The translations under genes and the position numbers were made by a program. Below the pieces are notes generated by a model, which was not told where the DNA came from, ran no database searches, and saw only the letters and a list, made by a program, of their open reading frames with translations. From contig JALSLV010000008.1 of the NCBI GenBank assembly GCA_026988115.1, positions 2,924 to 66,923 of the forward strand: a stretch of DNA of 64,000 bases, read 5' to 3'. Positions 5,467-52,062 of the stretch are shown one piece after another. Source of the DNA: Lysobacterales bacterium (GTDB lineage Bacteria; Pseudomonadota; Gammaproteobacteria; Xanthomonadales; Marinicellaceae). Position 1 is the first letter of the stretch. Every line of letters starts with the position of its first letter.

Positions 5467-6243
5467 CTATTTGATAACAAATGCCGCTTTCTTTTTACGC
5501 ACGGGTGGAGAAACGTATTTTTCTCGCCTGATTTGTGAAACTGGCATTCCTGCTTCTTTGAGTAATCCAAAAGCTTCATCAACCATAGCAGGGTTTCCGC
5601 AGAGATAGGCCACATCGTTTTCGCTATCGAATGTAACCGTTTCAAGGTAAGTCTGAACGTGACCTTCAAAATCTAATTGCGTAGCATTATTTAATTTTGC
5701 TCGGCTCAAACAACTGATGTAATGGTAATTTTCCATCTCTTTGGCATTTTTGCGAAATTCATCAGCGTATAACAACCCCGACTCATCACGCGCCCCCATA
5801 ACAACATAAACTTCGGCATCATCGTTTTTAATGCGAGATTTCAATTCATTGGTCATGGCACGATAAGGTGTTACACCAGTACCTGTTGCCACAAGAAAAT
5901 AGCGTTTGAATTTATCATCGGTCAGGCAAAAACGTCCATAAGGGGCACTGGCTTTTATCACATCGCCCACTTTCATGGCAGATAAACCAACCGTAGCCAA
6001 GCCACCTTTAACCCATGAAACAGCTAGTTCAATGGTGTTTATGATGTCGGTATTACTTTTAAGGACATTTGCAACCGAATAGGAGCGAAACACTTCTTGA
6101 CCATCTTGCTCAAACAATAGGCGGATAAATTGCCCCGCAGTTAACTCCAGCGATTGATTATCAAGAAGGTTAAATTCAAAGTGCACGGTGTTGTCATTTA
6201 GCTCGGTGCAAGAGGTCAATTTCAAAGTGAAATTTTCAGCCAT
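5467..6243 (-). CDS. fpr: ferredoxin-NADP+ reductase-like FAD/NAD(P)-binding oxidoreductase
   Basis: 258 aa with the FAD motif RSYSVAN and the NAD(P) motif VATGTGVTP. Length is typical of bacterial Fpr. Confidence 0.75.
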   Translation of the reverse strand: MAENFTLKLTSCTELNDNTVHFEFNLLDNQSLELTAGQFIRLLFEQDGQEVFRSYSVANVLKSNTDIINTIELAVSWVKGGLATVGLSAMKVGDVIKASAPYGRFCLTDDKFKRYFLVATGTGVTPYRAMTNELKSRIKNDDAEVYVVMGARDESGLLYADEFRKNAKEMENYHYISCLSRAKLNNATQLDFEGHVQTYLETVTFDSENDVAYLCGNPAMVDEAFGLLKEAGMPVSQIRREKYVSPPVRKKKAAFVIK

Positions 6244-6301
6244 TGGTGTATCTCTAGAAAAATAATTGCTTCATTTTAATTCAGCGTGATAAAATAGTAA
6301 A

Positions 6302-7315
6302 ATGAATAAACAAACCATCCTCTTTTTAGACAACACTTACCCTAAAGCTTACCAATTATCTACCTTGAAACAACAAGCTCTCGGTGGCACCGAGTCCAGT
6401 GTGGTCAAAACAGCGTTAATATTATCTCAAAAGTACAACGTTATCGTTGCCCAGAAATTTCGAGATAAAGTACATACAGAAAACGACAGCCTTTGCTTTA
6501 TTCCAAAAAGTAAGATGGATAAAACCAAGCCAGATTTTATCGTGGTGCTGCGCAAATACCCTTTATTAAAAGACTTGCACCAACAATTTCCACAGGCGAA
6601 ATTGTTTTTGTGGTTACACACTTACAAAAACACCGAATACGTCTTTAAAAGAATGGGATTATCCAAAACAAACACCACCCTAGTTTGCAATTCAAAAACT
6701 CACGCAATACACACGGCACAAATTTTAAACAATTCATTTTTAGGTTCTCTGTTTTCATTATTTTCAAATAAGACCAAAGTGGCTTATTGTTACAACCCGA
6801 TTGCTAAACCTGATAAACCACCCATTAAACGCGACATCAATAAATTACTGTTCTTTTCATCACCAAACAAAGGTTTAAAACAAGTGGTAAAAAGCTTCAA
6901 TGCGATTAATAAAAAATTACCCGATTTACGGCTTTATATCGCCAACCCAGGTTATAAGGACGATAAAAGTATTGAATTAAATAAAAATATAATAGTTTTA
7001 GGCAGTTTGCCGCATCAACAAATGATGCAGCATGTCGCCGAATCTTTGTGCGTGTTTTATCCACAGGATTCTTTTGCCGAAACTTTTGGTCTCATTTATG
7101 CCGAAGCCAATGCACTTGGTACACCCGTATTGGCGCATGATATAGGTGCTGCGCGAGAGATTTTACATTCAAACAATAAATTAATTGATGCCAATGATAT
7201 TCAACAAATAGAAAAGACGATTGTTTCGTGGCAACAAGACTTCCCCAAAGTTGAATACAACAAAAAATTTAATTATGAAAATATTCTTCAGCAGTGGCAG
7301 AGAGTTTTACAATAA
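6302..7315 (+). CDS. glycosyltransferase family 1/4-like
   Basis: 337 aa. The C-terminal ETFGLIYAEANALGTPVLAHDIGAAREIL matches the GT-B EX7E region. Confidence 0.7.
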   Translation: MNKQTILFLDNTYPKAYQLSTLKQQALGGTESSVVKTALILSQKYNVIVAQKFRDKVHTENDSLCFIPKSKMDKTKPDFIVVLRKYPLLKDLHQQFPQAKLFLWLHTYKNTEYVFKRMGLSKTNTTLVCNSKTHAIHTAQILNNSFLGSLFSLFSNKTKVAYCYNPIAKPDKPPIKRDINKLLFFSSPNKGLKQVVKSFNAINKKLPDLRLYIANPGYKDDKSIELNKNIIVLGSLPHQQMMQHVAESLCVFYPQDSFAETFGLIYAEANALGTPVLAHDIGAAREILHSNNKLIDANDIQQIEKTIVSWQQDFPKVEYNKKFNYENILQQWQRVLQ

Positions 7316-39045: not shown

Positions 39046-39288
39046 ATGAGATTATCAATAGAAGTAACACCAGAACAACACCAGCTTTTAAAAGTGGCAG
39101 CTGCTTTACAAGGTGAGTCAATTAAAGATTTCGTTTTAAAACGGACTTTGCCTGATATAGAAGAGCATATGGCTTTGAAAAAGTTAGAAGATTTTCTACG
39201 CCCAAGAATAAAGTCGGCAAAAGCAGGGAGTTTCACGAAAGATTCAGTAAATGAAATTTTTAAAAGCGTTATAAATAAGAGTATTTAA
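39046..39288 (+). CDS. ribbon-helix-helix type II antitoxin (ParD/DUF1778-like)
   Basis: The ORF starts at 38986, but I prefer the ATG at 39046 (MRLSIEVTPEQHQLLKVAAALQGESIKDFVL), giving 80 aa. Its stop lies 1 nt before the toxin start. Confidence 0.65.
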   Translation: MRLSIEVTPEQHQLLKVAAALQGESIKDFVLKRTLPDIEEHMALKKLEDFLRPRIKSAKAGSFTKDSVNEIFKSVINKSI

Positions 39289-39289
39289 A

Positions 39290-39598
39290 TTGCAAAGTTA
39301 TAAAATTACGGAAGATGCAAAAGTTGATTTAATTGAAATTGCTCACTATACTTTAAATAAATGGGGTAAAGATACATTTATCAAATATAGAAATGGGCTG
39401 GAGAAAGCCTTTAATGCCATTGCTAAACAAACCTCCATTAAGAAAATATTTTCTGAAAAACTGTCCGACGTTTTTGTGAAAAAATATAAGCATCATTACA
39501 TTTTTTATATTAACCAAAAAAACACAGTCATTATTATCGCAGTTATTCATGAAAAACGTGATATCTTAAGTCATTTGACACGACGTTTAGAGTCATAA
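39290..39598 (+). CDS. ParE/RelE-superfamily type II toxin
   Basis: 102 aa with a TTG start abutting the antitoxin stop. It has a ParE-like layout (D..I..Y....G...A..Y...L...) and the C-terminal IIIAVIHEKRD. Confidence 0.65.
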   Translation: MQSYKITEDAKVDLIEIAHYTLNKWGKDTFIKYRNGLEKAFNAIAKQTSIKKIFSEKLSDVFVKKYKHHYIFYINQKNTVIIIAVIHEKRDILSHLTRRLES

Positions 39599-39684: not shown

Positions 39685-41193
39685 ATGAAACAAAAAAACG
39701 AACTTTACGCGGCGGTGGATTTGGGATCCAATTCTTTTCATATGGTGGTGGCTGAGTTTGTTAATCATCAGATGCATGTGATTGATCGGCACAAAGACAT
39801 GGTACGTTTGGCTAACGGACTTGATGATGAAGGGCGATTGTCTGGTGAGAAGATGGATGAAGCGATTTCTTCGCTTGAAAAAATAGGACAGCGCATAGCG
39901 CACATACCCAAATCTCATTTGCGTATTGTTGGTACCAATACATTACGCAAAGCAAAAAATGCTGAGGAGTTTTTGGCGCGGGCATCAAGTGCATTGGGCA
40001 AACCCATTGATATTATTTCTGGGCGTGAAGAAGCGCGAATTTTGTATTTGGGTGTGGCACATTCACTTGCCAGCAATCAGGGCAAACGTTTGGTGATTGA
40101 CATTGGCGGAGGTTCGACTGAGTTGATAATTGGTGAAGAATTTACGCCCCTCTTGCGAGAAAGCTTACACATGGGTTGCGTTAGTTACACAAAAAAGTTT
40201 TTTGCTGACGGCAATATTTCAAAAAGCAATTTCAAAAAAGCCGTTCGTTCGGCGCAACGTCAATTGCTTTCCATTGTTAGTAAATACCAACAGTTGGGCT
40301 GGAACACCGTTATTGGTGCATCAGGAAGTATGCGTTCGACGGCTAAAGTTATTGTGCACAATGAATACGCACGGTATGGCATTGAAAAAGAGGGTTTGGA
40401 TAAACTCATTAAAAAATGTTGTGATTTGGGTACTATTGACAAACTCAAAAATCTGGATGGGCTAAGTTCTCGCCGAAGACCTGTTTTTATCGGTGGATTA
40501 GCCATAATTAAAGCCTTGTTCGATTCACTGGAATTTCAAACCATTCAAGCCTCAAGTGGAGCCTTGCGCGAGGGCATTGTTTATGATTTAAGCGGTCGTT
40601 TGCACCACAATGATATTCGCAGGCGCAGTATTGATAAGCTCGTTAAGCAATTTGAAATTGATATATCGCACAGCAAACGGGTGAAAGCTACCATTGATGA
40701 TTTGATCAACTTAAGCAATATTAAACTCTCTGAATCTCAACACGAATTGCTTAATTGGGCAGCACAATTGCATGAATTGGGTTTAAATATATCTCATTCC
40801 CATTTTGAAAAACACGCAGCTTATATCATTTCTCACGCAGACATGCCTGGTTTTTCTACGCAAGAACAGCTAAAACTATCTGTTATTGTTGCCTCACTCC
40901 GACGTAAAATCAAAAAAGAATGGTTGCAAAAATTGTCGAGTAAACAGCAAGTAAAACTTTTACCATTAATCGTTATATTTCGCGCTGCGACCTTATTAAA
41001 TCGCCCGAGAACTGACGACAATATCCCATTAGAGTCCATCACCTTAGACGATAAAAGCATTGAGATTAAGTTTCAAAACGATTGGCTAAACAATCATCCA
41101 CTTACCTTTGAAGATCTAGAATCTGAGAAGAAGTATCTGAAAAACTTGGGCATTAAGTTAAAACTCTACTCAACTCCATCGCAAGCATCTTGA
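39685..41193 (+). CDS. ppx: exopolyphosphatase / guanosine pentaphosphate phosphohydrolase
   Basis: 502 aa with the ASKHA motifs AAVDLGSNSFHMVV and IDIGGGSTELI. The C-terminal part is HD-like. Confidence 0.9.
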   Translation: MKQKNELYAAVDLGSNSFHMVVAEFVNHQMHVIDRHKDMVRLANGLDDEGRLSGEKMDEAISSLEKIGQRIAHIPKSHLRIVGTNTLRKAKNAEEFLARASSALGKPIDIISGREEARILYLGVAHSLASNQGKRLVIDIGGGSTELIIGEEFTPLLRESLHMGCVSYTKKFFADGNISKSNFKKAVRSAQRQLLSIVSKYQQLGWNTVIGASGSMRSTAKVIVHNEYARYGIEKEGLDKLIKKCCDLGTIDKLKNLDGLSSRRRPVFIGGLAIIKALFDSLEFQTIQASSGALREGIVYDLSGRLHHNDIRRRSIDKLVKQFEIDISHSKRVKATIDDLINLSNIKLSESQHELLNWAAQLHELGLNISHSHFEKHAAYIISHADMPGFSTQEQLKLSVIVASLRRKIKKEWLQKLSSKQQVKLLPLIVIFRAATLLNRPRTDDNIPLESITLDDKSIEIKFQNDWLNNHPLTFEDLESEKKYLKNLGIKLKLYSTPSQAS

Positions 41194-41939
41194 TAACCCA
41201 AATCACAACTTTTTTCATAAAGTAGGGTTGCTTTTTCTTTATCCATTTTTACACCATCACCGTATTCATAATTTACAGCTAAATTATAACAAGCGGTTTC
41301 TTCGTCGTTATCACAGGCATGAGAATAATAGGTGTTGGCTTTTTTTTGATTCTTTTTCGTGCCCTCTCCAGTATCGTACATTATAGCCAGTCCAAGGCAA
41401 CCAATTTCATCCTCTAACTCACATGATGTTGTAAAATATTTGAATGCTGTTTTGCTGTTTTTTTTGACACCATTGCCCTTTTTATACAAGTAGGCTAAAT
41501 TTGCACAGGCTGTCCCTTCTTCATTATTGCAAGCCATGGTGTAATATTTATGTGCTTGTTTATAATTTTGTTTTACGCCTTTTCCGTCAGCGTAAACAAC
41601 CCCAAGGTTATAGCAAGAATAACTGTCATTCAATTCACAACCTTTGCGGTATAACTCAAAGGCTTTGACCTTGTTTACATTCACTCCTTGGCCCGAATCA
41701 TAATAATAGCCCAAAACCCGACAACTGTAGCCATCATTCAAACCACAAGCTTTAGTGTAAAATTTTGTTGCTTTTGCATAGTCAATCAAATTGCCACCCA
41801 AACCTTCATCAAAAACATCTCCAAGATCCGAACACACATCAACATCGCCTTTTTCACAAGCAAGATATGCCTCTTTTGGTATTTCACAAAGAACGGTAAA
41901 ACTTGCTAAAACAAGTAAAGTTAATAAGGTGTATTTCAT
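41166..41939 (-). CDS. Sel1-like repeat, cysteine-rich (Hcp-like) secreted protein
   Basis: 257 aa with a signal peptide. It has about six 36-aa repeats of the form A.KYY..AC......C.NLG..Y..G.GV. Its 3' end overlaps the ppx 3' end by 28 nt. Confidence 0.8.
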   Translation of the reverse strand: MKYTLLTLLVLASFTVLCEIPKEAYLACEKGDVDVCSDLGDVFDEGLGGNLIDYAKATKFYTKACGLNDGYSCRVLGYYYDSGQGVNVNKVKAFELYRKGCELNDSYSCYNLGVVYADGKGVKQNYKQAHKYYTMACNNEEGTACANLAYLYKKGNGVKKNSKTAFKYFTTSCELEDEIGCLGLAIMYDTGEGTKKNQKKANTYYSHACDNDEETACYNLAVNYEYGDGVKMDKEKATLLYEKSCDLGYQDACDGVE

Positions 41940-42102: not shown

Positions 42103-42750
42103 TTACTCTGTTGGATCTTGGTACATAAAACGCTTGTAGCCAAACTTTTTATACAATTTATTAAACACCAAAGTACGCTGCATTTGTGTGTCTTTTAGTT
42201 TAGCAAACATGTCGTATGCCTGGTTAATTAATTGCACTTTATGCTGTTTATCAAACATCATCGTTGCGCCTGAAGTCATGGCAATCTCATCGGCACCAAC
42301 TATTCTGGTGTAGATTAATTGCCCAATAATGCCTTCACTTTTACAAAACCCCAAATCCACAATACGGATTAATTGCGAATCAGGCTCAAGCAAGTTTTGT
42401 AACCAAACATAACTGTTTTGAATATCAATTTTTTCAATAGAATAAACAGAAGGTTTTGTAGCAATCATTGAATCGATTAGTTTGCCTTCAACTTCAGTAA
42501 GCGAGTCCCTGTGTTTTTTATTAAAATTTTCAACACCAGTGCTGCCATTGTTACCTAAGCAATCATTGATAACAAAATCGTAAAAACGGTATTGCTCCCC
42601 TTCGTTTTTAAATGAAATTTTATTCATTCTTAGCATTTTCATCAAACGCGCCGCTTTTTTAAAATGGTTGCGCGCAATGCTGCCCAAAAGTTTTCCATTG
42701 AGCTCCATGCCAACGGCTCTTAAGTTCTGGTATTTTTGTATTTGTTTCAT
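42103..42750 (-). CDS. hypothetical protein (first gene of the accessory island)
   Basis: 215-aa ORF with no recognisable motif. It is divergent from the HTH-methyltransferase gene. Confidence 0.5.
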   Translation of the reverse strand: MKQIQKYQNLRAVGMELNGKLLGSIARNHFKKAARLMKMLRMNKISFKNEGEQYRFYDFVINDCLGNNGSTGVENFNKKHRDSLTEVEGKLIDSMIATKPSVYSIEKIDIQNSYVWLQNLLEPDSQLIRIVDLGFCKSEGIIGQLIYTRIVGADEIAMTSGATMMFDKQHKVQLINQAYDMFAKLKDTQMQRTLVFNKLYKKFGYKRFMYQDPTE

Positions 42751-42798: not shown

Positions 42799-42826
42799 TT
42801 GATAACCATGTATAAGGTTGTATAAT
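42799..42826 (+). promoter_or_regulatory. sigma70-like promoter placing the transcription start at or next to the methyltransferase ATG (leaderless candidate)
   Basis: TTGATA (42799-42804), a 16-nt spacer, then TATAAT (42821-42826). The ATG at 42833 is 6 nt after the -10 element. The region also holds ATAACC...GGTTAT inverted half-sites. Confidence 0.4.
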
Positions 42827-42832
42827 AGGGTT

Positions 42833-44074
42833 ATGAAAACACAATATACGTTATCTGAAGCGGCTAAAATTCTTGGCAAAAATCCTGAAACACTCAGAAG
42901 ATGGGATAATGACAATAAACTTAATGCTATTCGTGAACCTATTAGTAATTATAGGGTTTATAACAAAAAACAGTTAGAAATATTTCCTGAATTTAATGAA
43001 TACATTAAAAACGTCACTGAATCTAATTACGTTAAAGCCGATAGAGATTACTCGGTCATTGAGTTGTTTGCTGGTGCGGGAGGATTAGCCCTAGGAATGG
43101 AGCAAGCAGGCATTAAGTGCGAGGTATTGAATGAAATTGATAAATGGGCATGTCAAACTTTGCGAGAAAATCGACCTGCATGGAATGTACTAGAGGGCGA
43201 TATAAAATCGTGTGATTTTACCGATTACACAAACAAAGTCGATATTGTTACCGGTGGCTTTCCATGCCAAGCCTTTAGTTATGCAGGCAAAAAATTGGGT
43301 TTAAAAGATGCCAGAGGCACATTGTTTTATGAATTTGCTCGTGTGGTAAATGAAGTGAAACCACCGATATGCATTGGTGAAAATGTTCGTGGTTTATTGA
43401 GTCATAAAAAAGGCAAAACATTAGAAGGCATGATTTCAATACTTGATGAAATTGGTTATAACGTCGTTGCTCCGGTTCAAGTGTTAAAGGCCGTTAATTA
43501 TAATGTTCCTCAAAAACGCGAACGTTTAATCCTAGTCGGCATTAGAAAAGACATTGCAACCCAATACAATTATCCAAAGCCCTACGATACTGTTTATAAT
43601 TTGAAAGATGCCTTAAAGAAAGGTGAATTATTTGATTGCGATGTTCCTCAATCAAATGGTTCTACCTACCCTGAGCATAAAGAAAAGGTATTAGAACTCG
43701 TTCCCCCAAAAGGTTATTGGCGAGACTTGCCTTTAGATATTCAGAAAGAGTATATGCAAAAAAGCTTTTATCTAGGCGGTGGTAAAACGGGCATGGCAAG
43801 GCGAATTGGCTGGGATGAGCCTTGTTTAACCTTAACCTGTAGCCCCGCACAAAAACAAACCGAACGCTGTCACCCAGATGAAACCCGTCCTTTTACTGTC
43901 CGAGAATACGCTCGCATCCAAACCTTTCCCGACACATGGAATTTTATAGGTTCAGTCTCGCAACAATACAAGCAAATTGGTAATGCAGTACCAGTAAATT
44001 TGGCGAAGGAGATTGGCTATTCGATCGTTAACTTTTTGAATGACTATTATTTGAGTTTATCAAAGCCCAAATAA
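42833..44074 (+). CDS. DNA (cytosine-5) methyltransferase with N-terminal MerR-type HTH
   Basis: The ORF starts at TTG 42818, but I prefer the ATG at 42833. HTH is YTLSEAAKILGKNPETLRRWD. C5-MTase motifs are I ELFAGAGGL, IV GGFPCQAFS, VI ENVRGL, VIII QKRERL and X GNAVP. Confidence 0.9.
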   Translation: MKTQYTLSEAAKILGKNPETLRRWDNDNKLNAIREPISNYRVYNKKQLEIFPEFNEYIKNVTESNYVKADRDYSVIELFAGAGGLALGMEQAGIKCEVLNEIDKWACQTLRENRPAWNVLEGDIKSCDFTDYTNKVDIVTGGFPCQAFSYAGKKLGLKDARGTLFYEFARVVNEVKPPICIGENVRGLLSHKKGKTLEGMISILDEIGYNVVAPVQVLKAVNYNVPQKRERLILVGIRKDIATQYNYPKPYDTVYNLKDALKKGELFDCDVPQSNGSTYPEHKEKVLELVPPKGYWRDLPLDIQKEYMQKSFYLGGGKTGMARRIGWDEPCLTLTCSPAQKQTERCHPDETRPFTVREYARIQTFPDTWNFIGSVSQQYKQIGNAVPVNLAKEIGYSIVNFLNDYYLSLSKPK

Positions 44075-44646
44075 TAACTGTAATTTTCAAAGTTAATTTC
44101 ATCTAAAAGACTGCGTTGGGATTCATTCGCACTGTTGCTTATTTCTGTCAGTGCTGAATTCTCTGGTTTGTTGGATTTTTCATTAGATTTAAGAAAATCA
44201 TCAATTGCCATTGGTAAGACTTTATACAAATCATACAAGGCACTCTCTTGACCTGTTAGCATTTGATAAAATAAATCTCCAGATATTTTAAACACACGTG
44301 AATGGCTGTATTCTTTACCATTTATAATACCAGCCCAATGTTGTGAAAAACTTTTGGTAGCTAAAATCTGAACCCAATAACATTTGGCTTGTTTATTAGT
44401 GTCTGCATAATGAGCCAATTTTTGAAACAAACTTTCTGCCGAGCTACTGTTCATAGTATTGTGTTTATTTTTAATATCAGCAAACAAACTATCATCTGCT
44501 GCTTTGATATCAAAACCACTTAGATTACCCATTTCATAGCCGTCAATTCCTCCGAGAATTTCTTCATGAAAAGTTCCTATTGAATTGTTGATGGATTTAT
44601 CTATTTGACGGCTTATTTCCGTTTTGATTAATGTTTCTTCATCCAA
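44047..44646 (-). CDS. putative type II restriction endonuclease (PD-(D/E)xK-like), start uncertain or possibly 5'-truncated
   Basis: 199-aa ORF convergent with the MTase, overlapping it by 28 nt. It has the candidate catalytic pattern GFD-x10-ADIK. The only start is TTG. The frame stays open 55 codons further upstream, to 44811, without ATG, GTG or TTG. Confidence 0.5.
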   Translation of the reverse strand: MDEETLIKTEISRQIDKSINNSIGTFHEEILGGIDGYEMGNLSGFDIKAADDSLFADIKNKHNTMNSSSAESLFQKLAHYADTNKQAKCYWVQILATKSFSQHWAGIINGKEYSHSRVFKISGDLFYQMLTGQESALYDLYKVLPMAIDDFLKSNEKSNKPENSALTEISNSANESQRSLLDEINFENYSYYLGFDKLK

Positions 44647-44975
44647 TTTATTAAACTTCGTATCAAAAGTTAGTTTTATGACATCAATCTTATTTTTGTA
44701 GAATTTCTTTTTTGAGATATCAGCTTTGGCTTTTAAATATGAATTGTGAAGGTTTTCTATGCAAGCAAGAAAGTAAGTGACTGTCCGAAATGTAGGATAG
44801 GTATATGTTTGTCATTATTACAATATAAACTTATTAACTGATTTTTCAAGTTTTAAATTAGCTGATAAACACTAAAAATATTTACATCTTACGGTAGGAA
44901 CATGTGATTTCTGTATGTTTTAGACAAGTTAGATGTTAACCTGAAAAGTTAATATGCAATTTAAATTTAAAAACC

Positions 44976-45992
44976 CTATGAACCTTTGATGATATTTTTC
45001 TTTACAAAATCAACTCCTACTCGAATTGGATGTGCAAAACTATGATTAGCAATTCGTTGTGCATAATTTTGTTTAAGTGTAAATAAATAAGTAATTTTAT
45101 TTTTATTGGAATTGTTATCAGAATCCCAATCTAAAAATTCAATTTGTTTATCAATAAAGTTTGTACAAGGTATGTAAAGTTGGATTGGTTTTACATATTC
45201 ACCATTTGTCCAAGATATACATGAATCTGCGTTAATGTATGAAATAAATCCTCCATCTCCTTTTTGTAGACCCTTTTCTAAATTTATTTTAAAACCTTTA
45301 ACAAAGAAATATCTGAAATCAACACTACTTTTGCCATTATGTAAGACACAATCACATAATGCAGTAATACATAAATAATATTTATCATCGCTTCCAACAA
45401 ATATGTCTCCAAAACCAAGTTTAGTTTTTGAGTTTAAATAAGATCCATTATAAAAAATATTCAATTTCGCAATTTCCATGTTACTTATATTGAATCTCTT
45501 TTTAGAAATTTTATTTAAAAAATCATAATCAAGAATTTTTAGCTTTGAATCTTCCAAAGTGATTCTGGCTTGCTCTAACAATATGGACATCATATAAGAA
45601 TTAAATTCTTGGTGTAAATCGTGATCAATTAATTGTTTCCGATGATACATAAGCGTATTTAAATTAGTGTCTAATAAATTTTCGTCAATAAATGATGAGT
45701 AATTTGTAAAATTATTTTGCATATCAAGGCCTAACAATTGTGTAAAATTATTTTCACTTTTGGTAATTTGAGAAATCAGTTTTTTAAGAATTTTTTTAGC
45801 ACTATTTTCTTTTTTAGAAATTATTGTAATAATTGTATTGTTAATGTTTAAAGTGAAATTCTCCCTATTTATATGTGTTGGTATTGGATTAATTTCTTTA
45901 GATTTATGATAGCTTGAAAATGCATACTTAACTTTAATCAATGCAATACCAAAATCAGTTTCATCAGTAATATTTTTTATTATATTAGGCAA
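44976..45992 (-). CDS. unknown 338-aa protein, last gene of the MTase/GHKL/receiver operon (candidate effector)
   Basis: It has a TTG start overlapping the upstream stop by 13 nt and no obvious SD. It is very N/K/I-rich. I recognise no catalytic motif. There is a Cys cluster, CITALCDCV. Confidence 0.55.
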   Translation of the reverse strand: MPNIIKNITDETDFGIALIKVKYAFSSYHKSKEINPIPTHINRENFTLNINNTIITIISKKENSAKKILKKLISQITKSENNFTQLLGLDMQNNFTNYSSFIDENLLDTNLNTLMYHRKQLIDHDLHQEFNSYMMSILLEQARITLEDSKLKILDYDFLNKISKKRFNISNMEIAKLNIFYNGSYLNSKTKLGFGDIFVGSDDKYYLCITALCDCVLHNGKSSVDFRYFFVKGFKINLEKGLQKGDGGFISYINADSCISWTNGEYVKPIQLYIPCTNFIDKQIEFLDWDSDNNSNKNKITYLFTLKQNYAQRIANHSFAHPIRVGVDFVKKNIIKGS

Positions 45993-46546
45993 CTGATTAT
46001 CGATATTTTGAACTCAATATACAAACTTCCGTTTAAGGACGGGTCTACAAATGAAATTTTTTCAAAAAGACTCTTATGATCCTCTTCATAAATATCTAAT
46101 TCATCTTTTACAGCTGTATAGAATAGCTCATTTTTACCAGAAAAGTACGTTGTGATATTGTTGATTATTTCTTCATTATTATTTTGAGATGTGTAAATCG
46201 AACAAAAATGTATATGTTTTTCTTTAATAATTTTTGAAAGCAGTTTTAATGAATAAATCTCTCCTCCATTATCATCAAGCTTCCAATCTAACAAAACCAG
46301 GTCTCTTCTTTTAAAAAGAAAGTCTATACATTTTTCATCATCAATATCAGAAATATTAAATTTATGTATAGCTAAAGAAACTCCTTCTTTTTTAAAATTT
46401 TTATAGAGTTTTTTTGAAAGGTCAATTTCCATACAATTTGACTTAGGCTCTTCTGGTGTATAAAATTCAAATGCTTTTTCATCAATGTATATTGCTGACT
46501 TAATTGATTCTTTAATAATCTCTGTTGCTTTTTGATTTAAGGTCAT
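45980..46546 (-). CDS. receiver (REC)-like domain protein
   Basis: 188 aa with CheY-like landmarks: acidic pair D22-E23 (AIYIDEK), DLVLLD87WKL, CSIYT119S and K138. Confidence 0.6.
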   Translation of the reverse strand: MTLNQKATEIIKESIKSAIYIDEKAFEFYTPEEPKSNCMEIDLSKKLYKNFKKEGVSLAIHKFNISDIDDEKCIDFLFKRRDLVLLDWKLDDNGGEIYSLKLLSKIIKEKHIHFCSIYTSQNNNEEIINNITTYFSGKNELFYTAVKDELDIYEEDHKSLFEKISFVDPSLNGSLYIEFKISIISCLI

Positions 46547-46566
46547 TTAGAATTTTATACTCCATA

Positions 46567-49464
46567 TTATTTTAGTGGTTTAATAACGAAACAGGCTCCA
46601 TTCAGTATATTATAATCTTTATCATTTGTTGCAAAAATATCGAACCCGCTCTCATTAAGACTCTGCTTTGCAAGATATAATCCAATACCTCTTCCATTAG
46701 GTCGATTTGAATAAAATATTTCAAATATTTTATTCAATTTATGTTCTTCTATTTTAAACCCTGAGTTACATATAACAATTTCATCACTTTTGTCATTATA
46801 ATCTAACAGAATATGGCGATCCTTTTTATTTCTCATCCAATAAATAGCATTGTTTATTATATTTATATAAACAGTATGTATAACAGGTTCTTTAATTATC
46901 AATATATGTTTATTGTATGCATGTGTTCCTTCAAGTCTTATATCATAGGACTTTATACGATTTTCAAAAAATTTATTCAAATAACTATATATTGCTAACC
47001 CACTTACTTTTTTAGGTATTACACCAGATATTCTATATAGAGGGGATAATAAGTCATACTTATCTTCTAATTGATTAAAATTTTGCTTTAGAAATTGAAA
47101 TTGAATTTCATTTTTTACATTATTCTCTAAACTTAATTTAGCTATTGAACTATTGATTTTTGCATATAACTGGTTAAATTCATGATCAATTATTTCAACT
47201 GCAATACCTAATTGAGCCGTCTCTCTAGTTTGTTCCCAATTGTATTTTATAGTTTCGTATTCTGCTCTATATGCTCCTTGGATTAGATCCTCATCAATGT
47301 CAAAACTTAATTTATTGAGGTGTTCTATCAGTGGTGAAATTTCCTTATTAATTTGTTCTCTAAGGAATTCAAACTTGAGTGCCAATTTTTCAGAATGAAG
47401 AAGAACATCTTCTTTAGAATAAATCGAACCGATAACACTGTCTTTATCAAAATTCAAATCATCTATAATTCTTCTTGTTCGAAATGAAAAATCTTTAGAA
47501 ATCTTGGCTGATTGATTTTTTAATTGTTCTCTGTTATCAGTTATTAGTTTTTCAAGAGCTCCATTGTATTTTTGATAACTTTTAACAAACTCCATTTTCA
47601 ATTCTTTGATTTCGAGTTTGCCTTTAACTTGAATCATTAATTGTTTACTTTTATTTTTTGTCGTTTCAATGAAACTCATAAGCTTAGTTTCATATTTATC
47701 TAACCGATCTAACTGTGCATCTGTTGGCTTGTATCTCTTTGGGATTTTAGGTATTAAATTTTGAAACTCTATATCTAATGTGTGTAATCGATCTAGTATA
47801 CTTTCAATTTCTGAATAAAGAACACTTTGAAAAGTTGTTTTATCTTCAAGCTTATTAAGTAGTTTTTGGTATTCATTCTTATATTTTTCTAGTTTGATTG
47901 GATACTCTTTTAAGGACCGAGTAAATGCTTTTTTCTCTTCAATCGCTCTCTTATTATCAAGTTTGATAACTTCATGTTGTTGTTTTAGGTTTGCTTTTTT
48001 GTCTAAGAAAATTGATTTGTTAGCTTCAGTTCCAAAATACTCTTGGGCTAGTTCAATAAAAAAAGATTCTAAATCATTTTTAAATTTTCTGTACGCGGAA
48101 TTATTTATTAAACCTTCACGACTTGATTTATCACTTAATTTTTCATTTATTTTTCTGGATAGAGAAATATATCCGAACATTCTTCTGTGTGAAAAGTATG
48201 AACTTGCTCTTAAAGCTCTTCTTTTTTCAAAGCCTAGAAAATCAAAGTCAGTTCTCCCATAAGGCAACACTCTGAAATTATCCCTATAAATATACAGCCC
48301 CCCATTTGCACTAACTTTATCACTAATCCTTTTCCAAGCACTTGATTCAAGTTTAGATTCTTTTTCTCGACCTTGTGAAACACCTACTTTTATCGGAAAA
48401 GATCCATAGTAACTTCGGATGTCTTTTTTTCTAGGGTTTGTATATGTATAATTAATTTCTTCATCATATATTCTTAAAGTACCATTAAAGGAGCCTTTTC
48501 CATCAAATATCCCTTCAATTACAACATCTGCCAGATCAAAGTCATCTGCAGAAAAAAATTGACCATAGGAAGTTAGAAAATCAACTTCTGAGTTAATATC
48601 TTTATATATTGGAATAGCTGTTTTAACAATAATATTATTTTTTATAAACTCATTTGTAAATCCTGAAAGACTAGATGCAATAAATTGCCTATCACTTAAG
48701 CCATCATCATCTTTTTTCGTAATATCTATTATTTGCTCAATAGGCTCAAAAATTATAAACTTCGTTCCATGATTGTTCTCAATGTCTATTAAGTCATCAA
48801 GTAAATTATCCTCCAAAAAACAAGGTAGTTTTGAATTACTAATGGAGGCCTCAATTTCAGACTTTAAACTTTTCTGGTTTTCTTCCCATATTGGTTTACC
48901 ATCGATGTCGTTTTCTTTTTTAAAATTATTTAAGAAGGTTTTTTTTAGAGTTTCAAATTTTTTAGGAAAATCAGATGCACTTTTAATTGATTCTACTGGA
49001 ATATCAACATCATCTAAAAATAAATTATAGTTTTCTAATAACCTCCAATCAAAAAACAAGGCTTCTAATTCGTGCCCCTGCTTTTTTGTGAGCATTAACA
49101 TAGGGTTTCCTAGAAACGCGACTGAAAGTCTTCCAATTCCTTTTTCACCTGACTTTATTCTAGGTTTTTTCCAAAGTGTTTCTTCACTTTCTTTTTCTTC
49201 AAGCTTAGGTCTACTTTTAGAATCTGTTCCAAGTACTAACCATTTTTCAATAATGTCTTTTCTTGACATTCCTTTACCATCATCTGTCATTACAAATAAT
49301 GGAGTATCAACACCTTCATAAGAATCTAAATAAATTTCTGCCGTCAGGTGATCAGCATAAGCATCATAACCATTTTTCCATAATTCCGTGATAGCAGTTG
49401 GCAAATCAGCAATTTGACCTTTGCCAAGTAAATCTACTGCTCTAGCTTTAGTCCTGAATTGCAT
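46567..49464 (-). CDS. 965-aa double-GHKL protein: N-terminal Bergerat ATPase, coiled-coil-like middle, C-terminal histidine-kinase-like DHp plus CA module
   Basis: N-terminal motifs: ELWKNGYDAY (E27, N31, D34), TDDGKGM and GEKGIGRLS. Residues about 485-730 are K/E/L/N-rich. C-terminal motifs: H-box-like IIDH761EFNQL, N-box INIINNAIYW, F-box IFEIFYS and G2 box GRGIGLYLAKQ. Confidence 0.75.
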   Translation of the reverse strand: MQFRTKARAVDLLGKGQIADLPTAITELWKNGYDAYADHLTAEIYLDSYEGVDTPLFVMTDDGKGMSRKDIIEKWLVLGTDSKSRPKLEEKESEETLWKKPRIKSGEKGIGRLSVAFLGNPMLMLTKKQGHELEALFFDWRLLENYNLFLDDVDIPVESIKSASDFPKKFETLKKTFLNNFKKENDIDGKPIWEENQKSLKSEIEASISNSKLPCFLEDNLLDDLIDIENNHGTKFIIFEPIEQIIDITKKDDDGLSDRQFIASSLSGFTNEFIKNNIIVKTAIPIYKDINSEVDFLTSYGQFFSADDFDLADVVIEGIFDGKGSFNGTLRIYDEEINYTYTNPRKKDIRSYYGSFPIKVGVSQGREKESKLESSAWKRISDKVSANGGLYIYRDNFRVLPYGRTDFDFLGFEKRRALRASSYFSHRRMFGYISLSRKINEKLSDKSSREGLINNSAYRKFKNDLESFFIELAQEYFGTEANKSIFLDKKANLKQQHEVIKLDNKRAIEEKKAFTRSLKEYPIKLEKYKNEYQKLLNKLEDKTTFQSVLYSEIESILDRLHTLDIEFQNLIPKIPKRYKPTDAQLDRLDKYETKLMSFIETTKNKSKQLMIQVKGKLEIKELKMEFVKSYQKYNGALEKLITDNREQLKNQSAKISKDFSFRTRRIIDDLNFDKDSVIGSIYSKEDVLLHSEKLALKFEFLREQINKEISPLIEHLNKLSFDIDEDLIQGAYRAEYETIKYNWEQTRETAQLGIAVEIIDHEFNQLYAKINSSIAKLSLENNVKNEIQFQFLKQNFNQLEDKYDLLSPLYRISGVIPKKVSGLAIYSYLNKFFENRIKSYDIRLEGTHAYNKHILIIKEPVIHTVYINIINNAIYWMRNKKDRHILLDYNDKSDEIVICNSGFKIEEHKLNKIFEIFYSNRPNGRGIGLYLAKQSLNESGFDIFATNDKDYNILNGACFVIKPLK

Positions 49465-50539
49465 TGTAGTTTTCTATAATTGCTTGCCCAACTCTTTTTG
49501 CATATTCAGGAGGTACTGCATTACCTATTAATCTAGCAATATCTCCCATGCTTGTTCCTGAGAATCTATAATCCTTTGGGAATGTTTGTAATGTGGCACC
49601 CTCTCTTATTGAAAGCGCTCTGTTTTCTTGTGGGTGAACGAAGCGGCCATTAGATACACTAAAAAATTTCGTTGTAATTGTTGGAGCTGCTTTATCCCAC
49701 CACAGCCTACCAAATGTGTCTTTAAAGGAATTATCTTTACCAATAAAACAGTTTAATTGTAGTTCTGGATCATCTTTAAAACCTGATCTGTCACCACCAT
49801 CCTTTTTAACTTTTTTTAGTCGCCTTAAAGTTAGGTTTGTAATATTTGGAACAGAATGCATGAAATCTGTTTTATCAGAGTAGCCAGCTTTGATTCTTTT
49901 AAATCCATTTACAATACCAATCGTGTCACGAACAGTATATTTCTTAATTGCTTTTATTGGTTCTAATTCTTCTTTAGTTACTCTGTTGGCAATAAGCGTA
50001 AATCTTTTGCGATTTTGTGGCACTCCATAATCTGCTGTATTATGAACATCAAAATGTACTTTGTATTTATTTTTTATTAACCAAGATATAAAAGAAGCCA
50101 AACCACTTTCCCTTTTTTTGCGCAGTACACCTGGTACATTTTCTACGACAACATAGCCGGGGTTAAAGTACCTAACAAATCTTTCAAATTCTTTAAGTAA
50201 ATTTTTAGATTTTTTTGCTTTGGTTTTATCTGTATTTATAATGCTCCAAAATTGACAAGGGCTACAGCCAATTAATAACAATTCATCGTCATTCCTTTGA
50301 ATATCTAATGTTGACTCTAAGTCTTTTGCTTTTAAGTTAAATACATCTGCTTCAATAAACTTAGCTCCTGTTATATTGGCTTCATAAGTTTGTTTGCATT
50401 TTTTTTCGTTATCTATACCTGCTAAAACTTTTATACCTGCTTGTTGCATACCACAACTCATTCCGCCTCCACCACAGAAAAAATCCACTGCTTTAATTTT
50501 TGGTTTGTCGTTTGATTTTTTATTTATATTGTTAATCAT
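49448..50539 (-). CDS. DNA (cytosine-5) methyltransferase (Dcm family), first gene of the operon
   Basis: 363 aa with motifs I DFFCGGGGM, IV GCSPCQFWS, VI ENVPGV, VIII QNRKRF and X GNAVPP. Its 3' end overlaps the next gene's start by 17 nt. Confidence 0.9.
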   Translation of the reverse strand: MINNINKKSNDKPKIKAVDFFCGGGGMSCGMQQAGIKVLAGIDNEKKCKQTYEANITGAKFIEADVFNLKAKDLESTLDIQRNDDELLLIGCSPCQFWSIINTDKTKAKKSKNLLKEFERFVRYFNPGYVVVENVPGVLRKKRESGLASFISWLIKNKYKVHFDVHNTADYGVPQNRKRFTLIANRVTKEELEPIKAIKKYTVRDTIGIVNGFKRIKAGYSDKTDFMHSVPNITNLTLRRLKKVKKDGGDRSGFKDDPELQLNCFIGKDNSFKDTFGRLWWDKAAPTITTKFFSVSNGRFVHPQENRALSIREGATLQTFPKDYRFSGTSMGDIARLIGNAVPPEYAKRVGQAIIENYNAIQD

Positions 50540-50883: not shown

Positions 50884-52062
50884 TTACTGGTTTAGCATTT
50901 GCAATAATTCAAACAGACTGATGACATCAGTTTCCGCATCCAGTGGATATCTGTCATTACCGCCATAGACGACAAAACTTTCATCCGGTTTAATATCATC
51001 TAGTGCGTGATAAAAGCCTTTTGTGACTTTTGGCGCTAGTCCACTTTTGATTTCTATTGCCCAAATTTTGTTGTTTGGGAATTCTAAGATTAAATCTATT
51101 TCAGCTCCTGCTGCGGTTCGGTAAAAGCTTGCTTTTGTTGCTGGTTTTGTAAGGCTTAGAATATTTTCTATAACATAGCCTTCCCAACTTGATCCGTAAA
51201 CTGGGTGACCTGATAATTGGTTGTAATCTGCTATTCCGAGTAAGGCATGAGTAATACCACTGTCGCGGACATATATACGTGGTGATTTAACAAGTCTTTT
51301 TTTGGTGTTTACATAGAGTGGTTGAAACTTTCGCACCAGTAATAAATCAACTAATAAATCGATATAACTACTAATCGTGGGTGCTGATGTTGATAAACTA
51401 CTGGCTAAATTTGAGGCATTGAGTAATTGTCCTTGGTTATGTGCGAGCATTGTCCATAGGCGTTGTAATGTTTCTGCTGGGATACGTGGGCCAAACTGCG
51501 GCACATCTCGTTCTAGATAGGTTCTTATAAAGTTTGTTCGGTAGGCGAAACTGTCTTCATCATTTTTGGCAAGATAACTATCTGGAAATCCACCCCGTAT
51601 CCAAAGATTATGCTCAATTATATCTTGTTGTTTTTTATTGTTATGAATCTCTAATAAATTTAATGGGTTCATGTCTATGTATTCAATACGCCCGGCTAGT
51701 GTTTCTCCTGATTGTTTTAACAAATCTATTGATGCTGATCCAAGTATCAAAAATCGGTTTGTTTTTAAACCGTTTCTTCTGCCTGTATCAATAACGCCTC
51801 TTAGTACCTGAAAGATTTCTGGCATACGGTGTATTTCATCTAAAATAATCAGTTTTTCTTCATTTCTATTAAAGAATAAAACAGGGTCTGTTAGTTTTTC
51901 ACGGTCTTGTATTGCTTCTAAATCCAAATAAATAGCAGGGATGGTTTGTGCGACTTGGTGAGCCAGCGTTGTTTTACCAACTTGGCGTGGACCAATCAAG
52001 GCAACAGCTGCTTGTCTATTGAGTGCTTTATGGACTTTTTTGATGATATTTCGCTTAAACAT
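50884..52062 (-). CDS. AAA+ ATPase with DUF4143-type C-terminal domain
   Basis: 392 aa with Walker A GPRQVGKTT and Walker B LIILDEIH. The overall layout matches the widespread AAA_14/DUF4143 family (from memory). Confidence 0.75.
   Translation of the reverse strand: MFKRNIIKKVHKALNRQAAVALIGPRQVGKTTLAHQVAQTIPAIYLDLEAIQDREKLTDPVLFFNRNEEKLIILDEIHRMPEIFQVLRGVIDTGRRNGLKTNRFLILGSASIDLLKQSGETLAGRIEYIDMNPLNLLEIHNNKKQQDIIEHNLWIRGGFPDSYLAKNDEDSFAYRTNFIRTYLERDVPQFGPRIPAETLQRLWTMLAHNQGQLLNASNLASSLSTSAPTISSYIDLLVDLLLVRKFQPLYVNTKKRLVKSPRIYVRDSGITHALLGIADYNQLSGHPVYGSSWEGYVIENILSLTKPATKASFYRTAAGAEIDLILEFPNNKIWAIEIKSGLAPKVTKGFYHALDDIKPDESFVVYGGNDRYPLDAETDVISLFELLQMLNQ

Follow-up and report, generated by a model that had tools for sequence, protein, structure and literature searches.

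A catalogued C5 methyltransferase, histidine kinase and receiver module, probably decayed through a frameshift in its receiver gene, in an uncultured marine gammaproteobacterium

A module in which a histidine kinase gene is paired with a receiver gene downstream of a DNA methyltransferase gene was catalogued by Bellieny-Rabelo, Pretorius and Moleleki (2021, GBE) in a comparative genomics study that collected 644 genomic regions (PMC8011034). The Pfam families PF19191 (HEF_HK) and PF19192 (Response_reg_2) were built from exactly this kinase/receiver gene pair, for which those authors reported 91.6% linkage, an upstream C5 methyltransferase (MTase), enrichment of restriction-modification (RM) genes and a downstream Vsr; in one Pectobacterium strain the receiver gene was split, which they blamed on assembly (PMC8011034). 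We found no experiments on the exact HEF_HK/Response_reg_2 family in the literature, and defence, methylation dependence and phosphotransfer would be expected of it by analogy with other systems.

Several of those systems have been validated. Ambrosia (AbrR-AbrA-AbrB-AbrC-AbrD), described in a 2025 preprint, has proven anti-phage activity that is abolished by mutation of the phospho-acceptor Asp, and its AbrB clusters with a HEF_HK-annotated protein in the authors' own clustering (10.1101/2025.09.30.679545). Defence signalling from kinase to receiver is likewise established for Detocs (DtcA/DtcB/DtcC), whose His and Asp mutants lose defence (10.1101/2023.01.24.525353). The occurrence of paraMORC GHKL ATPases in RM systems was recognised by Iyer, Abhiman and Aravind in 2008 (PMC2292703), and anti-phage activity is proven for the paraMORC3 Shedu protein VcSduA (PMC12137116). 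A preliminary description of the DNA studied here had proposed an RM-linked relay from kinase to receiver, a general idea which agrees with the 2021 and 2008 studies (PMC8011034, PMC2292703) and with Ambrosia and Detocs. It had also put the gene set forward as a candidate undescribed system, which does not hold: the module was catalogued as PF19191/PF19192 in 2021 and falls within the paraMORC-RM association of 2008.

The operon lies on the minus strand of a 64,000-nucleotide window (the whole stretch of DNA that was analysed) from an uncultured relative of Marinicellaceae, a marine gammaproteobacterium, within a strain-specific island of ~11 kb in the ppx-atpC interval. We regard this segment as an island because a relative with an 89% identical Ppx carries no more than two genes, both unrelated, in this interval; a search for repeats flanking the island gave nothing convincing. 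Four ORFs at 49448–50539, 46567–49464, 45980–46546 and 44976–45992, of which the first two overlap by 17 nt and the last two by 13 nt with 20 nt between the pairs, were reproduced with the coordinates, strand and spacing originally given for them, as was the AT-richness of the stretch (GC 0.25–0.31 over 44.5–49.5 kb versus 0.40–0.44 in the atp genes). The Pfam scores reported below and the presence of a 965-aa ORF in DNA of 27% GC are far above chance. Promoter and terminator scans yielded only chance-level matches, and Rfam gave zero matches over the whole window. The layout as a single tight expression unit also stood, as did the expectation that the gene families travel together: MTase, kinase and receiver genes occur in this order, on the same strand and tightly coupled, in ~60 of 69 related loci in GTDB species genomes, and the arrangement recurs at ~30% identity on a Pseudoalteromonas megaplasmid. 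Intact homologues include those of Tenacibaculum maritimum (LT634361.1, locus L001, 6947–12453) and of Pseudoalteromonas pPBSW1 (817661–823752). Judged by its closest relatives, which are flavobacterial, and by a GC content (25–31%) far under that of the host genes, the operon is laterally acquired.

Next to the operon is an Eco47II-type system with an intact methylase and a degraded endonuclease ORF, the start codon of which is gone. When PADLOC was run on all proteins of the locus, it matched only the MTases, the Eco47II restriction endonuclease and an AAA_14/DUF4143 protein (candidate PDC-S01). An assignment by such a tool, which the preliminary description had considered, was thus obtained for the operon's MTase (MTase_II) and not for the kinase or either half of the receiver protein, for neither of which PADLOC v2 has a model.

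Gene 1 (49448–50539, minus strand) encodes an apparently intact C5 DNA cytosine methyltransferase of 363 aa, as its motifs had already suggested. It matches PF00145 (E 3.4e-55), TIGR00675 (dcm, E 1e-43) and PADLOC MTase_II (E 1e-89), and its motifs IV, VI, VIII and X (GCSPCQ, ENVPG, VPQ.RKR and GNAVPP) are kept across 61 syntenic homologues. This methylase is probably the sole component of the operon still active in the present copy.

Gene 2 (46567–49464, minus strand) encodes a soluble 965-aa protein in which a paraMORC-type GHKL ATPase is followed by a long helical region and a histidine-kinase core, and Pfam bore out the earlier reading of a Bergerat-fold start, a coiled-coil-like middle and a histidine-kinase end. 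The N-terminal ATP-binding domain (GHKL, HATPase_c_3; PF13589, E 9e-14) spans residues 23–145 (49030–49398), the HEF_HK dimerisation/phosphotransfer (DHp) domain (PF19191, E 2.4e-20) residues 751–813 (47026–47214) and the C-terminal catalytic (CA, HATPase_c) domain (PF02518, E 3.3e-10) residues 861–961 (46582–46884). The GHKL residues E27, N31 and D34 and the motifs DDGxGM (61–66) and GEKGIGRL (106–113) are invariant among the 25–60 homologues compared; in the CA domain, the N-box N868/N871/N872, N900-S-G and G924-R-G-x-G-L are invariant as well. The DHp motif D760-H761-E762-F763 is invariant or nearly so; conservation of His761 (codon at 47182–47184), on which the proposed relay depends, was complete both in 25 and in 60 homologues. 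A profile of the protein matches, over residues 707–947, the kinases ThkA, LvrB and VicK in the PDB, residues 150–480 have neither a Pfam nor a PDB sequence match, and NCBIfam returned only generic kinase CA-domain matches below cut-off. Homologues of gene 2 share 67–79% identity and its full set of three domains, and those with a named source belong to Flavobacteriia.

The N-terminus of gene 2 therefore has what characterises MORC and paraMORC proteins, namely a GHKL domain of HATPase_c_3 type in which the ATP-binding motifs are intact (PF13589; E27, N31, D61xGxG and the G106–G111 loop invariant), and its gene adjoins a C5 MTase just as paraMORC genes have cytosine methylase, Vsr and nuclease genes as neighbours. 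In known paraMORCs the direct partner, fused or not, is a nuclease or helicase, whereas the GHKL domain of gene 2 is instead fused to a histidine-kinase core and appears to signal to a receiver. A characterised counterpart is AbrB of Ambrosia, which is 38% identical to gene 2 over residues 3–132 (E 4e-18) and shares with it a YRDxFRVxPYG region (E 3e-10); AbrB is 747 aa long versus 965 aa, and the homology falls within its N-terminal 400 aa, the part that was compared. The remainder of Ambrosia differs. AbrA is an N6-adenine MTase (N6_Mtase) and not a C5 enzyme (PF00145), and the 209-aa receiver AbrC has no PF19192 match, gives an hhalign probability of 0.3% against the present receiver-family profile and has no similarity to either Response_reg_2 or the C-terminal module of the present receiver protein. 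In addition, the HNH nuclease AbrD is obligatory in Ambrosia, which also has the XRE regulator AbrR, and neither of these two is found at 44.6–50.9 kb here, although HNH_2/HNH and XRE genes occur in some relatives of the present locus.

The largest change to the preliminary description concerns the remaining two ORFs, which had been read as a 188-aa receiver protein and a separate 338-aa effector gated through it. ORF3 (45980–46546) and ORF4 (44976–45992) are, on comparison with homologues, halves of one gene of ~516 aa if repaired (gene 3; 44976–46546, minus strand), broken where an A-run has lost 1 nt, so that the operon comprises three genes and not four: a C5 MTase, a GHKL/coiled-coil/HEF_HK histidine kinase and a Response_reg_2 receiver protein. 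The homologues of ORF4 are proteins of ~515 aa (512–560 aa) with PF19192 at the N-terminus, and ORF4 corresponds to the C-terminal two-thirds of such a protein, severed by the frameshift. Three-frame translation against homologues places the meeting point of the frames at ..SLYIEFK/NIDNQLPN.., where a homologue reads ..SLYKSFNDIDDSLPN.., and the site is an A4 run at 46006–46009 (TTCAAAATATC) in place of the A5 implied by homologues (TTC AAA AAT ATC). Of 65 related loci, 63 have the receiver gene as a single ORF without interruption.

We considered whether the locus could be functional as it stands, either because the frameshift arose in sequencing or assembly or because a split receiver and output work as two polypeptides, and judge this to be improbable. 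The deletion sits in a homopolymer, a classic site of error, and the split Pectobacterium gene of the 2021 study was ascribed by its authors to assembly (PMC8011034). However, an A4/A5 run is short for an Illumina error, and the identical sequence is present in a JGI contig and in an ENA MEGAHIT contig (ERZ27262649; 100% identity over 18.9 kb), the 188-aa product being recorded from NCBI, JGI, Logan and ENA, with the proviso that these assemblies may all come from one read set and share a systematic error. The metagenomic homologue L073 is also split, by an independent break 17 codons upstream and likewise in an A-run, which leaves a small possibility of tolerated split forms; the search that turned up such forms favours breaks in the linker. 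A further apparent case, P0056, proved to be a contig-end fragment. Against expression of two polypeptides, translation of ORF4 would need to begin at a TTG that no Shine-Dalgarno sequence precedes, while host genes show GGAG, and the gene is fused in nearly all the related loci. Programmed −1 frameshifting and transcriptional slippage were rejected as well, there being no X XXY YYZ slippery heptamer at the break and a run of only A4. The present copy thus probably no longer works as a unit of restriction or defence and is most likely a decayed RM-like, phosphorelay-gated system.

The receiver (REC-like, Response_reg_2) domain itself occupies residues 14–158 of ORF3 (46072–46507; PF19192, E 1.3e-30). 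Most of the landmarks originally picked out in it are supported by 83 homologues, in which D22 and the equivalents of D87 (codon at 46286–46288) and T119 (T or S) are 100% conserved and E23 98% conserved; K138 is not among them, as only 16 of the 83 have Lys at that position. An AlphaFold2 (AF2) model of the homologue P0002 matched CheY-like receivers weakly in Foldseek.

Compared with the catalogued module, the locus agrees in most respects. Its kinase has the "group 1" architecture (HATPase_c_3 + HEF_HK + HATPase_c), the conserved His with a following acidic residue (HEF motif) is represented by D760-H761-E762-F763, the adjacent Response_reg_2 gene has the acidic pair, the phospho-acceptor Asp and the Thr/Ser, both signalling proteins are soluble, and a C5 MTase gene (PF00145) lies directly upstream on the same strand with its 17-nt overlap. 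It departs from the module in that the receiver, elsewhere a single polypeptide of ~515–600 aa, is here divided into 188 and 338 aa, in the lack of a Vsr, HNH or XRE accessory gene, and in its host, a Marinicellaceae-like gammaproteobacterium with a flavobacterial-type copy. By these features the locus is a member of the module of Bellieny-Rabelo et al., degraded rather than another family. Classical type II RM systems share with the module a C5 MTase that is intact and complete in its catalytic motifs, carriage on mobile islands and a frequent Vsr companion, and have a cognate restriction endonuclease, in place of which two signalling proteins are found here. Detocs shares the logic of a cytoplasmic histidine kinase that senses infection and passes phosphate to a receiver with an effector domain attached; it has a TPR sensor (DtcA), a PNP ATP-nucleosidase effector (DtcC), a buffer receiver (DtcB) and no methyltransferase, where the present operon has GHKL and MTase components. 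No TPR, PNP or second receiver gene was found at the locus with Pfam, nor any PADLOC match to Detocs, whose models in v2.0.0 are unconfirmed. A figure legend on the DefensePredictor systems names HATPase and REC domains among unvalidated predictions, and none of the systems in that legend could be linked to the present family.

The C-terminal output module encoded by ORF4 is specific to the family. Its AF2 model (pLDDT 86.8) begins with a helical subdomain and continues into a beta-rich one, and its conserved features are the invariant motif F-G-D196...C208-x-T-x-L-C213-D214, the further invariant residues Q312, R313, N316, R324 and D328, and a C-terminal tail, HPxRVGVDF, which is conserved and of low model confidence. 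Foldseek with the 338-aa model found no match in the PDB (best E-value 0.14, TM below 0.16) and nothing significant in BFVD, and Pfam at E<=1 on 83 family members returned PF19192 alone, with no recurrent weak match in the module. ORF4 had been described as devoid of recognisable motifs and the operon as devoid of nuclease signatures, and both statements survive: ORF4 has no Pfam, PADLOC, PDB or BFVD match, and no known nuclease family or fold was detected in any operon product by Pfam, PADLOC, NCBIfam or Foldseek (PDB, BFVD). A profile of the module drew 296 matches from 1.84 billion representatives; among the 150 listed, nearly all are 510–600 aa and aligned C-terminally, and none has another architecture, the module always being fused to a Response_reg_2 receiver. 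The receiver protein is only 36–66% identical among homologues versus 67–79% for the kinase, as would be expected of a protein with a rapidly evolving part that serves as effector or sets specificity. The label of effector is a guess, nevertheless, and a DNA-binding or adaptor domain could fit.

A DNA-binding output would be expected if the system were a regulatory two-component system, whose kinase and receiver do not themselves attack DNA and, on infection or stress, turn the methylase gene and neighbouring RM or type IV nuclease genes on or off. This was the speculation of the 2021 authors (PMC8011034), it resembles the working model for Ambrosia, in which reporter expression rises on infection (10.1101/2025.09.30.679545), and it gains from the XRE/C-protein-like genes upstream in 12 of 63 loci and from the modelled module, whose helices followed by a small three-stranded sheet may be a winged-helix variant. 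We consider it unlikely. No HTH or DNA-binding family was detected in the 83 members and no fold match was obtained, the invariant polar and Cys residues resemble an active or interaction site more than a generic DNA binder, and no recognised nuclease-type or Vsr gene that such a system could regulate lies nearby in 27 of 63 loci, among them the present one and the one on the Pseudoalteromonas megaplasmid.

Elsewhere the module has companions. Accessory nuclease genes are present in 29 of the 63 loci, the nucleases that flank about half of the relatives being variable (HNH_2, NOV_C/DUF3883 or McrB-like), and Vsr is the commonest accessory gene (19 of 63). The prevalence of Vsr, together with the action of MutL/MORC-type GHKL proteins in mismatch repair and chromatin (PMC2292703), could point away from immunity to an epigenetic or DNA-repair module, in which the MutL/MORC-like kinase would work with its receiver to coordinate 5mC methylation with the Vsr-type repair of T:G mismatches or with the organisation of the chromosome. 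We hold this to be very improbable, as many ordinary C5-MTase RM systems come with Vsr, related GHKL systems have proven anti-phage activity (10.1101/2025.09.30.679545; PMC12137116), and the module is patchy and laterally mobile, residing in variable islands with RM systems, McrBC-like genes, toxin-antitoxin systems and integrases.

Taken as a whole, the locus is probably best explained as the catalogued three-gene module, gained laterally, in which the receiver gene has been broken, the relay uncoupled and the methylase left as an orphan. In intact relatives the methylase would mark host DNA; that Vsr so often accompanies it speaks for 5mC being constitutive. The N-terminal GHKL clamp of the kinase would sense a cue from DNA or infection, for example unmodified DNA, and trigger autophosphorylation at His761 and phosphotransfer to Asp87; the phosphorylated receiver would then switch on the C-terminal output module, which may be the effector itself or a controller of the flanking nucleases. 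In the present locus this relay would be uncoupled from its output, and because the deletion parts the receiver domain from the output module, restriction or defence has most likely been lost, while the methylase would persist as an orphan, as in the neighbouring Eco47II-type system.

A stronger claim about intact members, which we offer tentatively and think more doubtful than otherwise, is that they constitute self-contained, phosphorelay-gated restriction, in which the MORC-like clamp, on reading how DNA is methylated or some other cue in it, activates through His-to-Asp transfer a new effector fold (C-x-T-x-x-C-D / QRxxN...RxGxDF) that kills or restricts. If it is an effector, the module would represent a new immune effector class, since neither the PDB nor BFVD yields a match to its fold and, among the matches listed, it is fused only to the receiver. 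Were this true, the repeated breakage of the receiver gene, here and in L073, would reflect its toxicity.

For the present locus the outcome is mainly corrective: it has three genes rather than four, belongs to a module already catalogued and is probably decayed. GHKL/MORC-type ATPases are relatives of eukaryotic chromatin silencers, and the family considered here couples a DNA methylase and a MORC-like kinase to a receiver whose 330-residue output matches no known fold. The module is widespread, comprising the 644 genomic regions of the 2021 study (PMC8011034) and ~60 more found here in GTDB species genomes. The role of the output module, once identified, would show how GHKL/MORC-type ATPases transmit a signal about the state of DNA, and could bring to light a type of effector new to bacterial immunity.

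The window carries, on the minus strand, ORFs for a C5 DNA methyltransferase (ORF1, 49448–50539; PF00145, E 3e-55), a 965-aa kinase (ORF2, 46567–49464; HATPase_c_3 at 23–145, HEF_HK at 751–813 and HATPase_c at 861–961), a 188-aa Response_reg_2 receiver (ORF3, 45980–46546; PF19192, E 1e-30) and a 338-aa protein (ORF4, 44976–45992). ORF1 and ORF2 overlap by 17 nt, ORF2 and ORF3 are 20 nt apart, and ORF3 and ORF4 overlap by 13 nt, matching the preliminary description exactly, and its methyltransferase, GHKL plus histidine-kinase and receiver calls were borne out by these domain matches. The AT-richness it noted was also evident, with a GC of 0.25–0.31 across 44.5–49.5 kb versus 0.40–0.44 in the atp genes. 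Such domain scores and a 965-aa ORF in 27% GC DNA are well beyond chance. The gene set is not undescribed as had been proposed, since Bellieny-Rabelo et al. 2021 built PF19191 and PF19192 from exactly the HEF_HK/Response_reg_2 gene pair and already reported the upstream C5 methyltransferase (PMC8011034). That study, which contained no experiment, found a linkage of 91.6% in 644 regions, HATPase_c_3+HEF_HK+HATPase_c as the dominant kinase architecture, an enrichment of RM domains around the pair, and neighbors that often included a C5 methyltransferase upstream and Vsr downstream, with HNH_2 in some genomes (PMC8011034). Our literature search for a test of the C5-MTase/HEF_HK/Response_reg_2 module itself found no paper. 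The operon is a degraded new member of this described family, whose defense function is putative.

The degradation concerns ORF3 and ORF4, which are one gene and not two. Close homologs of ORF4 are all 512–560 aa with PF19192 at the N-terminus, and the third gene is a single unbroken ORF of 515–578 aa in 63 of 65 related loci, both exceptions coming from a long-read draft full of frameshifts. In a three-frame translation ORF3 ends ...SLYIEFK before a stop and the ORF4 frame goes on NIDNQLPNIIKNITDE...; homologs read unbroken ...SLYKSFNDIDDSLPNLIRD... at this join. The simplest cause would be deletion of a single A in a run of five (TTC AAA AAT ATC to TTCAAAATATC, window 46006–46009). Sequencing error is an alternative source of the break, and the records bear on it: the identical split occurs in an ENA MEGAHIT contig (100% identity across 18.9 kb) and the 188-aa product is recorded in NCBI, JGI, Logan and ENA, making an assembly artifact unlikely, albeit with records that may derive from one read set. 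A functional split is the other alternative. No Shine-Dalgarno sequence was found before the ORF4 TTG start (the host atp genes carry GGAG), and programmed frameshifting at the break was ruled out by the absence of a slippery heptamer; for these reasons the third gene is read as a pseudogene. The receiver gene is also split in an independent homolog at L073, a metagenomic locus (5520–7119 of JGI 3300000983 BBAY69_10002408; 168 + 372 aa), through a 1-nt change in a different A-run (GAAAAAGTGGG) that precedes the position of the window's break by ~17 codons. This second split may reflect repeated inactivation of the gene, a sequencing error in the homopolymer or a bias of ascertainment. A split receiver gene was present in the 2021 authors' own Pectobacterium strain (PMC8011034).

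AlphaFold2 models of a full-length receiver-protein homolog (P0002) and of the window's 338 aa, built with 83–84 homologs, were confident (pLDDT 87.2 and 86.8, respectively) and have a REC-like domain, two further subdomains (one helical, one beta-rich) and a tail, HPxRVGVDF, that is conserved but of low confidence. The receiver part had weak CheY-type matches by Foldseek. The 338-aa module had no match in the PDB (best E 0.14, TM below 0.16) or BFVD by Foldseek, nor any in Pfam, NCBIfam or PADLOC, in keeping with the earlier failure to recognize a motif in it, and no second Pfam family was found in the 83 receiver-protein members. The reported absence of a known nuclease signature in the operon stands. 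The module profile matched 296 of 1.84 billion cluster representatives; among the 150 matches listed, nearly all are 510–600-aa proteins with the match located C-terminally, and the module is thus seen among them only fused to a Response_reg_2 receiver. Its invariants include D196, C208, T210, C213, D214, Q312, R313, N316, R324 and D328, and the core motif Y-L-x-C-x-T-x-x-C-D is kept in a distant Pseudoalteromonas protein. The tail (HPxRVGVDF(V)K, window 44976–45020, minus strand, ORF4 residues ~321–331) is near-invariant family-wide with a pLDDT below 50, which suggests a docking or auto-inhibitory peptide, not part of the fold.

Kinase invariants include E27, N31, D34, DDGxGM and GEKGIGRL in the N-terminal part, followed by a YRDxFRVLPYGR block, D760-H761-E-F, an N-box, and NSG and GRGxGL boxes. 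The coiled-coil-like middle and histidine-kinase-type end proposed for this protein were both recovered, at residues ~480–720 and in the C-terminal 240 residues, which match bona fide PDB histidine kinases (e.g., ThkA at 2e-13). Receiver residues D22, D87 and T/S119 are conserved throughout (100%), and E23 nearly so (98%); the further landmark K138 did not hold up, being Lys in 16 of 83 homologs. Judged by the top matches, conservation is far stronger in the kinase (67–79% identity) than in the receiver protein (36–66%).

GHKL 'paraMORC' proteins were placed in RM contexts by Iyer et al. 2008 (PMC2292703), GHKL control of a nuclease has been validated for a paraMORC3-Shedu fusion (PMC12137116), and Detocs demonstrates that a kinase-to-receiver-effector relay can serve as a defense system (10.1101/2023.01.24.525353). 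Ambrosia, a validated anti-phage system in a 2025 preprint, comprises an XRE regulator, an N6 methyltransferase, the GHKL/HSP90-like histidine kinase AbrB, the receiver AbrC and an HNH nuclease, and its defense needs every gene and the receiver Asp (10.1101/2025.09.30.679545). Comparison with AbrB residues 1–399 and full AbrC from its supplement revealed that the AbrB N-terminus is homologous to the window kinase (38% identity, E 4e-18), with a common YRDxFRVxPYG region (E 3e-10), whereas AbrC is unrelated to the window receiver protein. Alternatively, kinase and receiver could act solely on transcription, as a two-component regulator of RM genes, a reading that parallels the Ambrosia model. 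DefenseFinder labels the AbrB/HEF_HK kinase cluster 'RM_Type_II__Type_II_REases' (Supplementary Table S1, 10.1101/2025.09.30.679545), which implies that this GHKL family is already hit by a restriction-enzyme profile derived from REBASE.

The operon is conserved: searching the species genomes of GTDB identified 69 loci, nearly all in Bacteroidota, and in about 60 the methyltransferase, kinase and receiver-protein genes follow one another in this order on a single strand, joined as tightly as in the window. The same trio is found at ~30% identity on a Pseudoalteromonas megaplasmid, where PGAP names it 'DNA cytosine methyltransferase / ATP-binding protein / response regulator receiver domain'. 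Accessory genes vary between the related loci (n = 63): Vsr (19/63), HNH_2 and XRE-type HTH (12/63 each), McrB-like AAA_5 and a second C5 methyltransferase (9/63 each), NOV_C/DUF3883 (6/63) and HNH+DUF3427 (3/63), with 27 of the 63 having neither a nuclease-type gene nor Vsr. The window's operon falls in this last, bare three-gene class and likewise lacks an XRE gene upstream. Truncated kinase homologs, matching residues ~350–962 at 28% identity, lie in or beside the E. coli prophage records AJ304858.2 (CP-1639) and LN997803.1 (phi467), annotated as 'histidin kinase-like protein' and 'remnant integrative element'.

The closest relatives of the neighboring Ppx come from uncultured marine gammaproteobacteria (68% identity to a Marinicellaceae MAG, 48% to Marinicella), and the operon proteins are closest to Flavobacteriia, e.g., Tenacibaculum, Aquimarina, Cellulophaga and Polaribacter. 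In a relative with an 89% identical Ppx, the ppx–atpC interval holds just two unrelated Lcl_C genes, which argues that the ~11-kb stretch at about 41.2–52.3 kb is an island specific to the strain, within a variable hotspot. Another relative's interval (loci L074 and L075 compared) holds valS, a transposase and a reverse-transcriptase/bAvd cluster resembling a diversity-generating retroelement. Just upstream of ppx, the window encodes a ParD/ParE toxin-antitoxin pair (~39046–39598, minus strand), and ParD with or without ParE also adjoins ppx in L074 and L075. Besides the operon, the island contains a Sel1-repeat gene (41166–41939, minus strand; convergent with ppx, 28-nt overlap with its 3' end), a DUF7986 gene (42103–42750, minus strand), an AAA_14 + DUF4143 ATPase directly upstream of the operon (50884–52062, minus strand; PADLOC candidate PDC-S01, E 7e-85) and a convergent Eco47II-type RM pair. 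The latter's C5 methyltransferase is intact, with an N-terminal MerR-type HTH (42818–44074, plus strand). Its endonuclease frame (44047–44811, minus strand; Pfam RE_Eco47II positions 8–201), open from 44811, has no ATG, GTG or TTG before a TTG at 44646; apparently either its start codon is lost or ~50 N-terminal residues are missing. With the receiver gene also broken, the island's two 'attacking' components thus look degraded and its two methylases look intact. Degradation of the attacking part with the methylase kept is the usual decay route of RM-like systems, which lends weak indirect support to the receiver protein being the carrier of harmful activity.

In intact relatives, the methylase would mark self DNA and the kinase's GHKL clamp would detect a DNA-borne or infection cue; His761 would then autophosphorylate and pass its phosphate to Asp87, and the receiver would turn on its own C-terminal module, which may act alone or together with the nucleases that variably flank the operon. 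As an alternative to this defense relay, the three-gene set could serve in repair or in epigenetic control. In the window, the relay would be severed from its output. The preliminary description was largely real as an observation and partly right in its logic, and erred in gene count and novelty. As a finding the locus itself is of moderate to low interest; the output module of the C5-MTase/HEF_HK/Response_reg_2 family is a worthwhile target.
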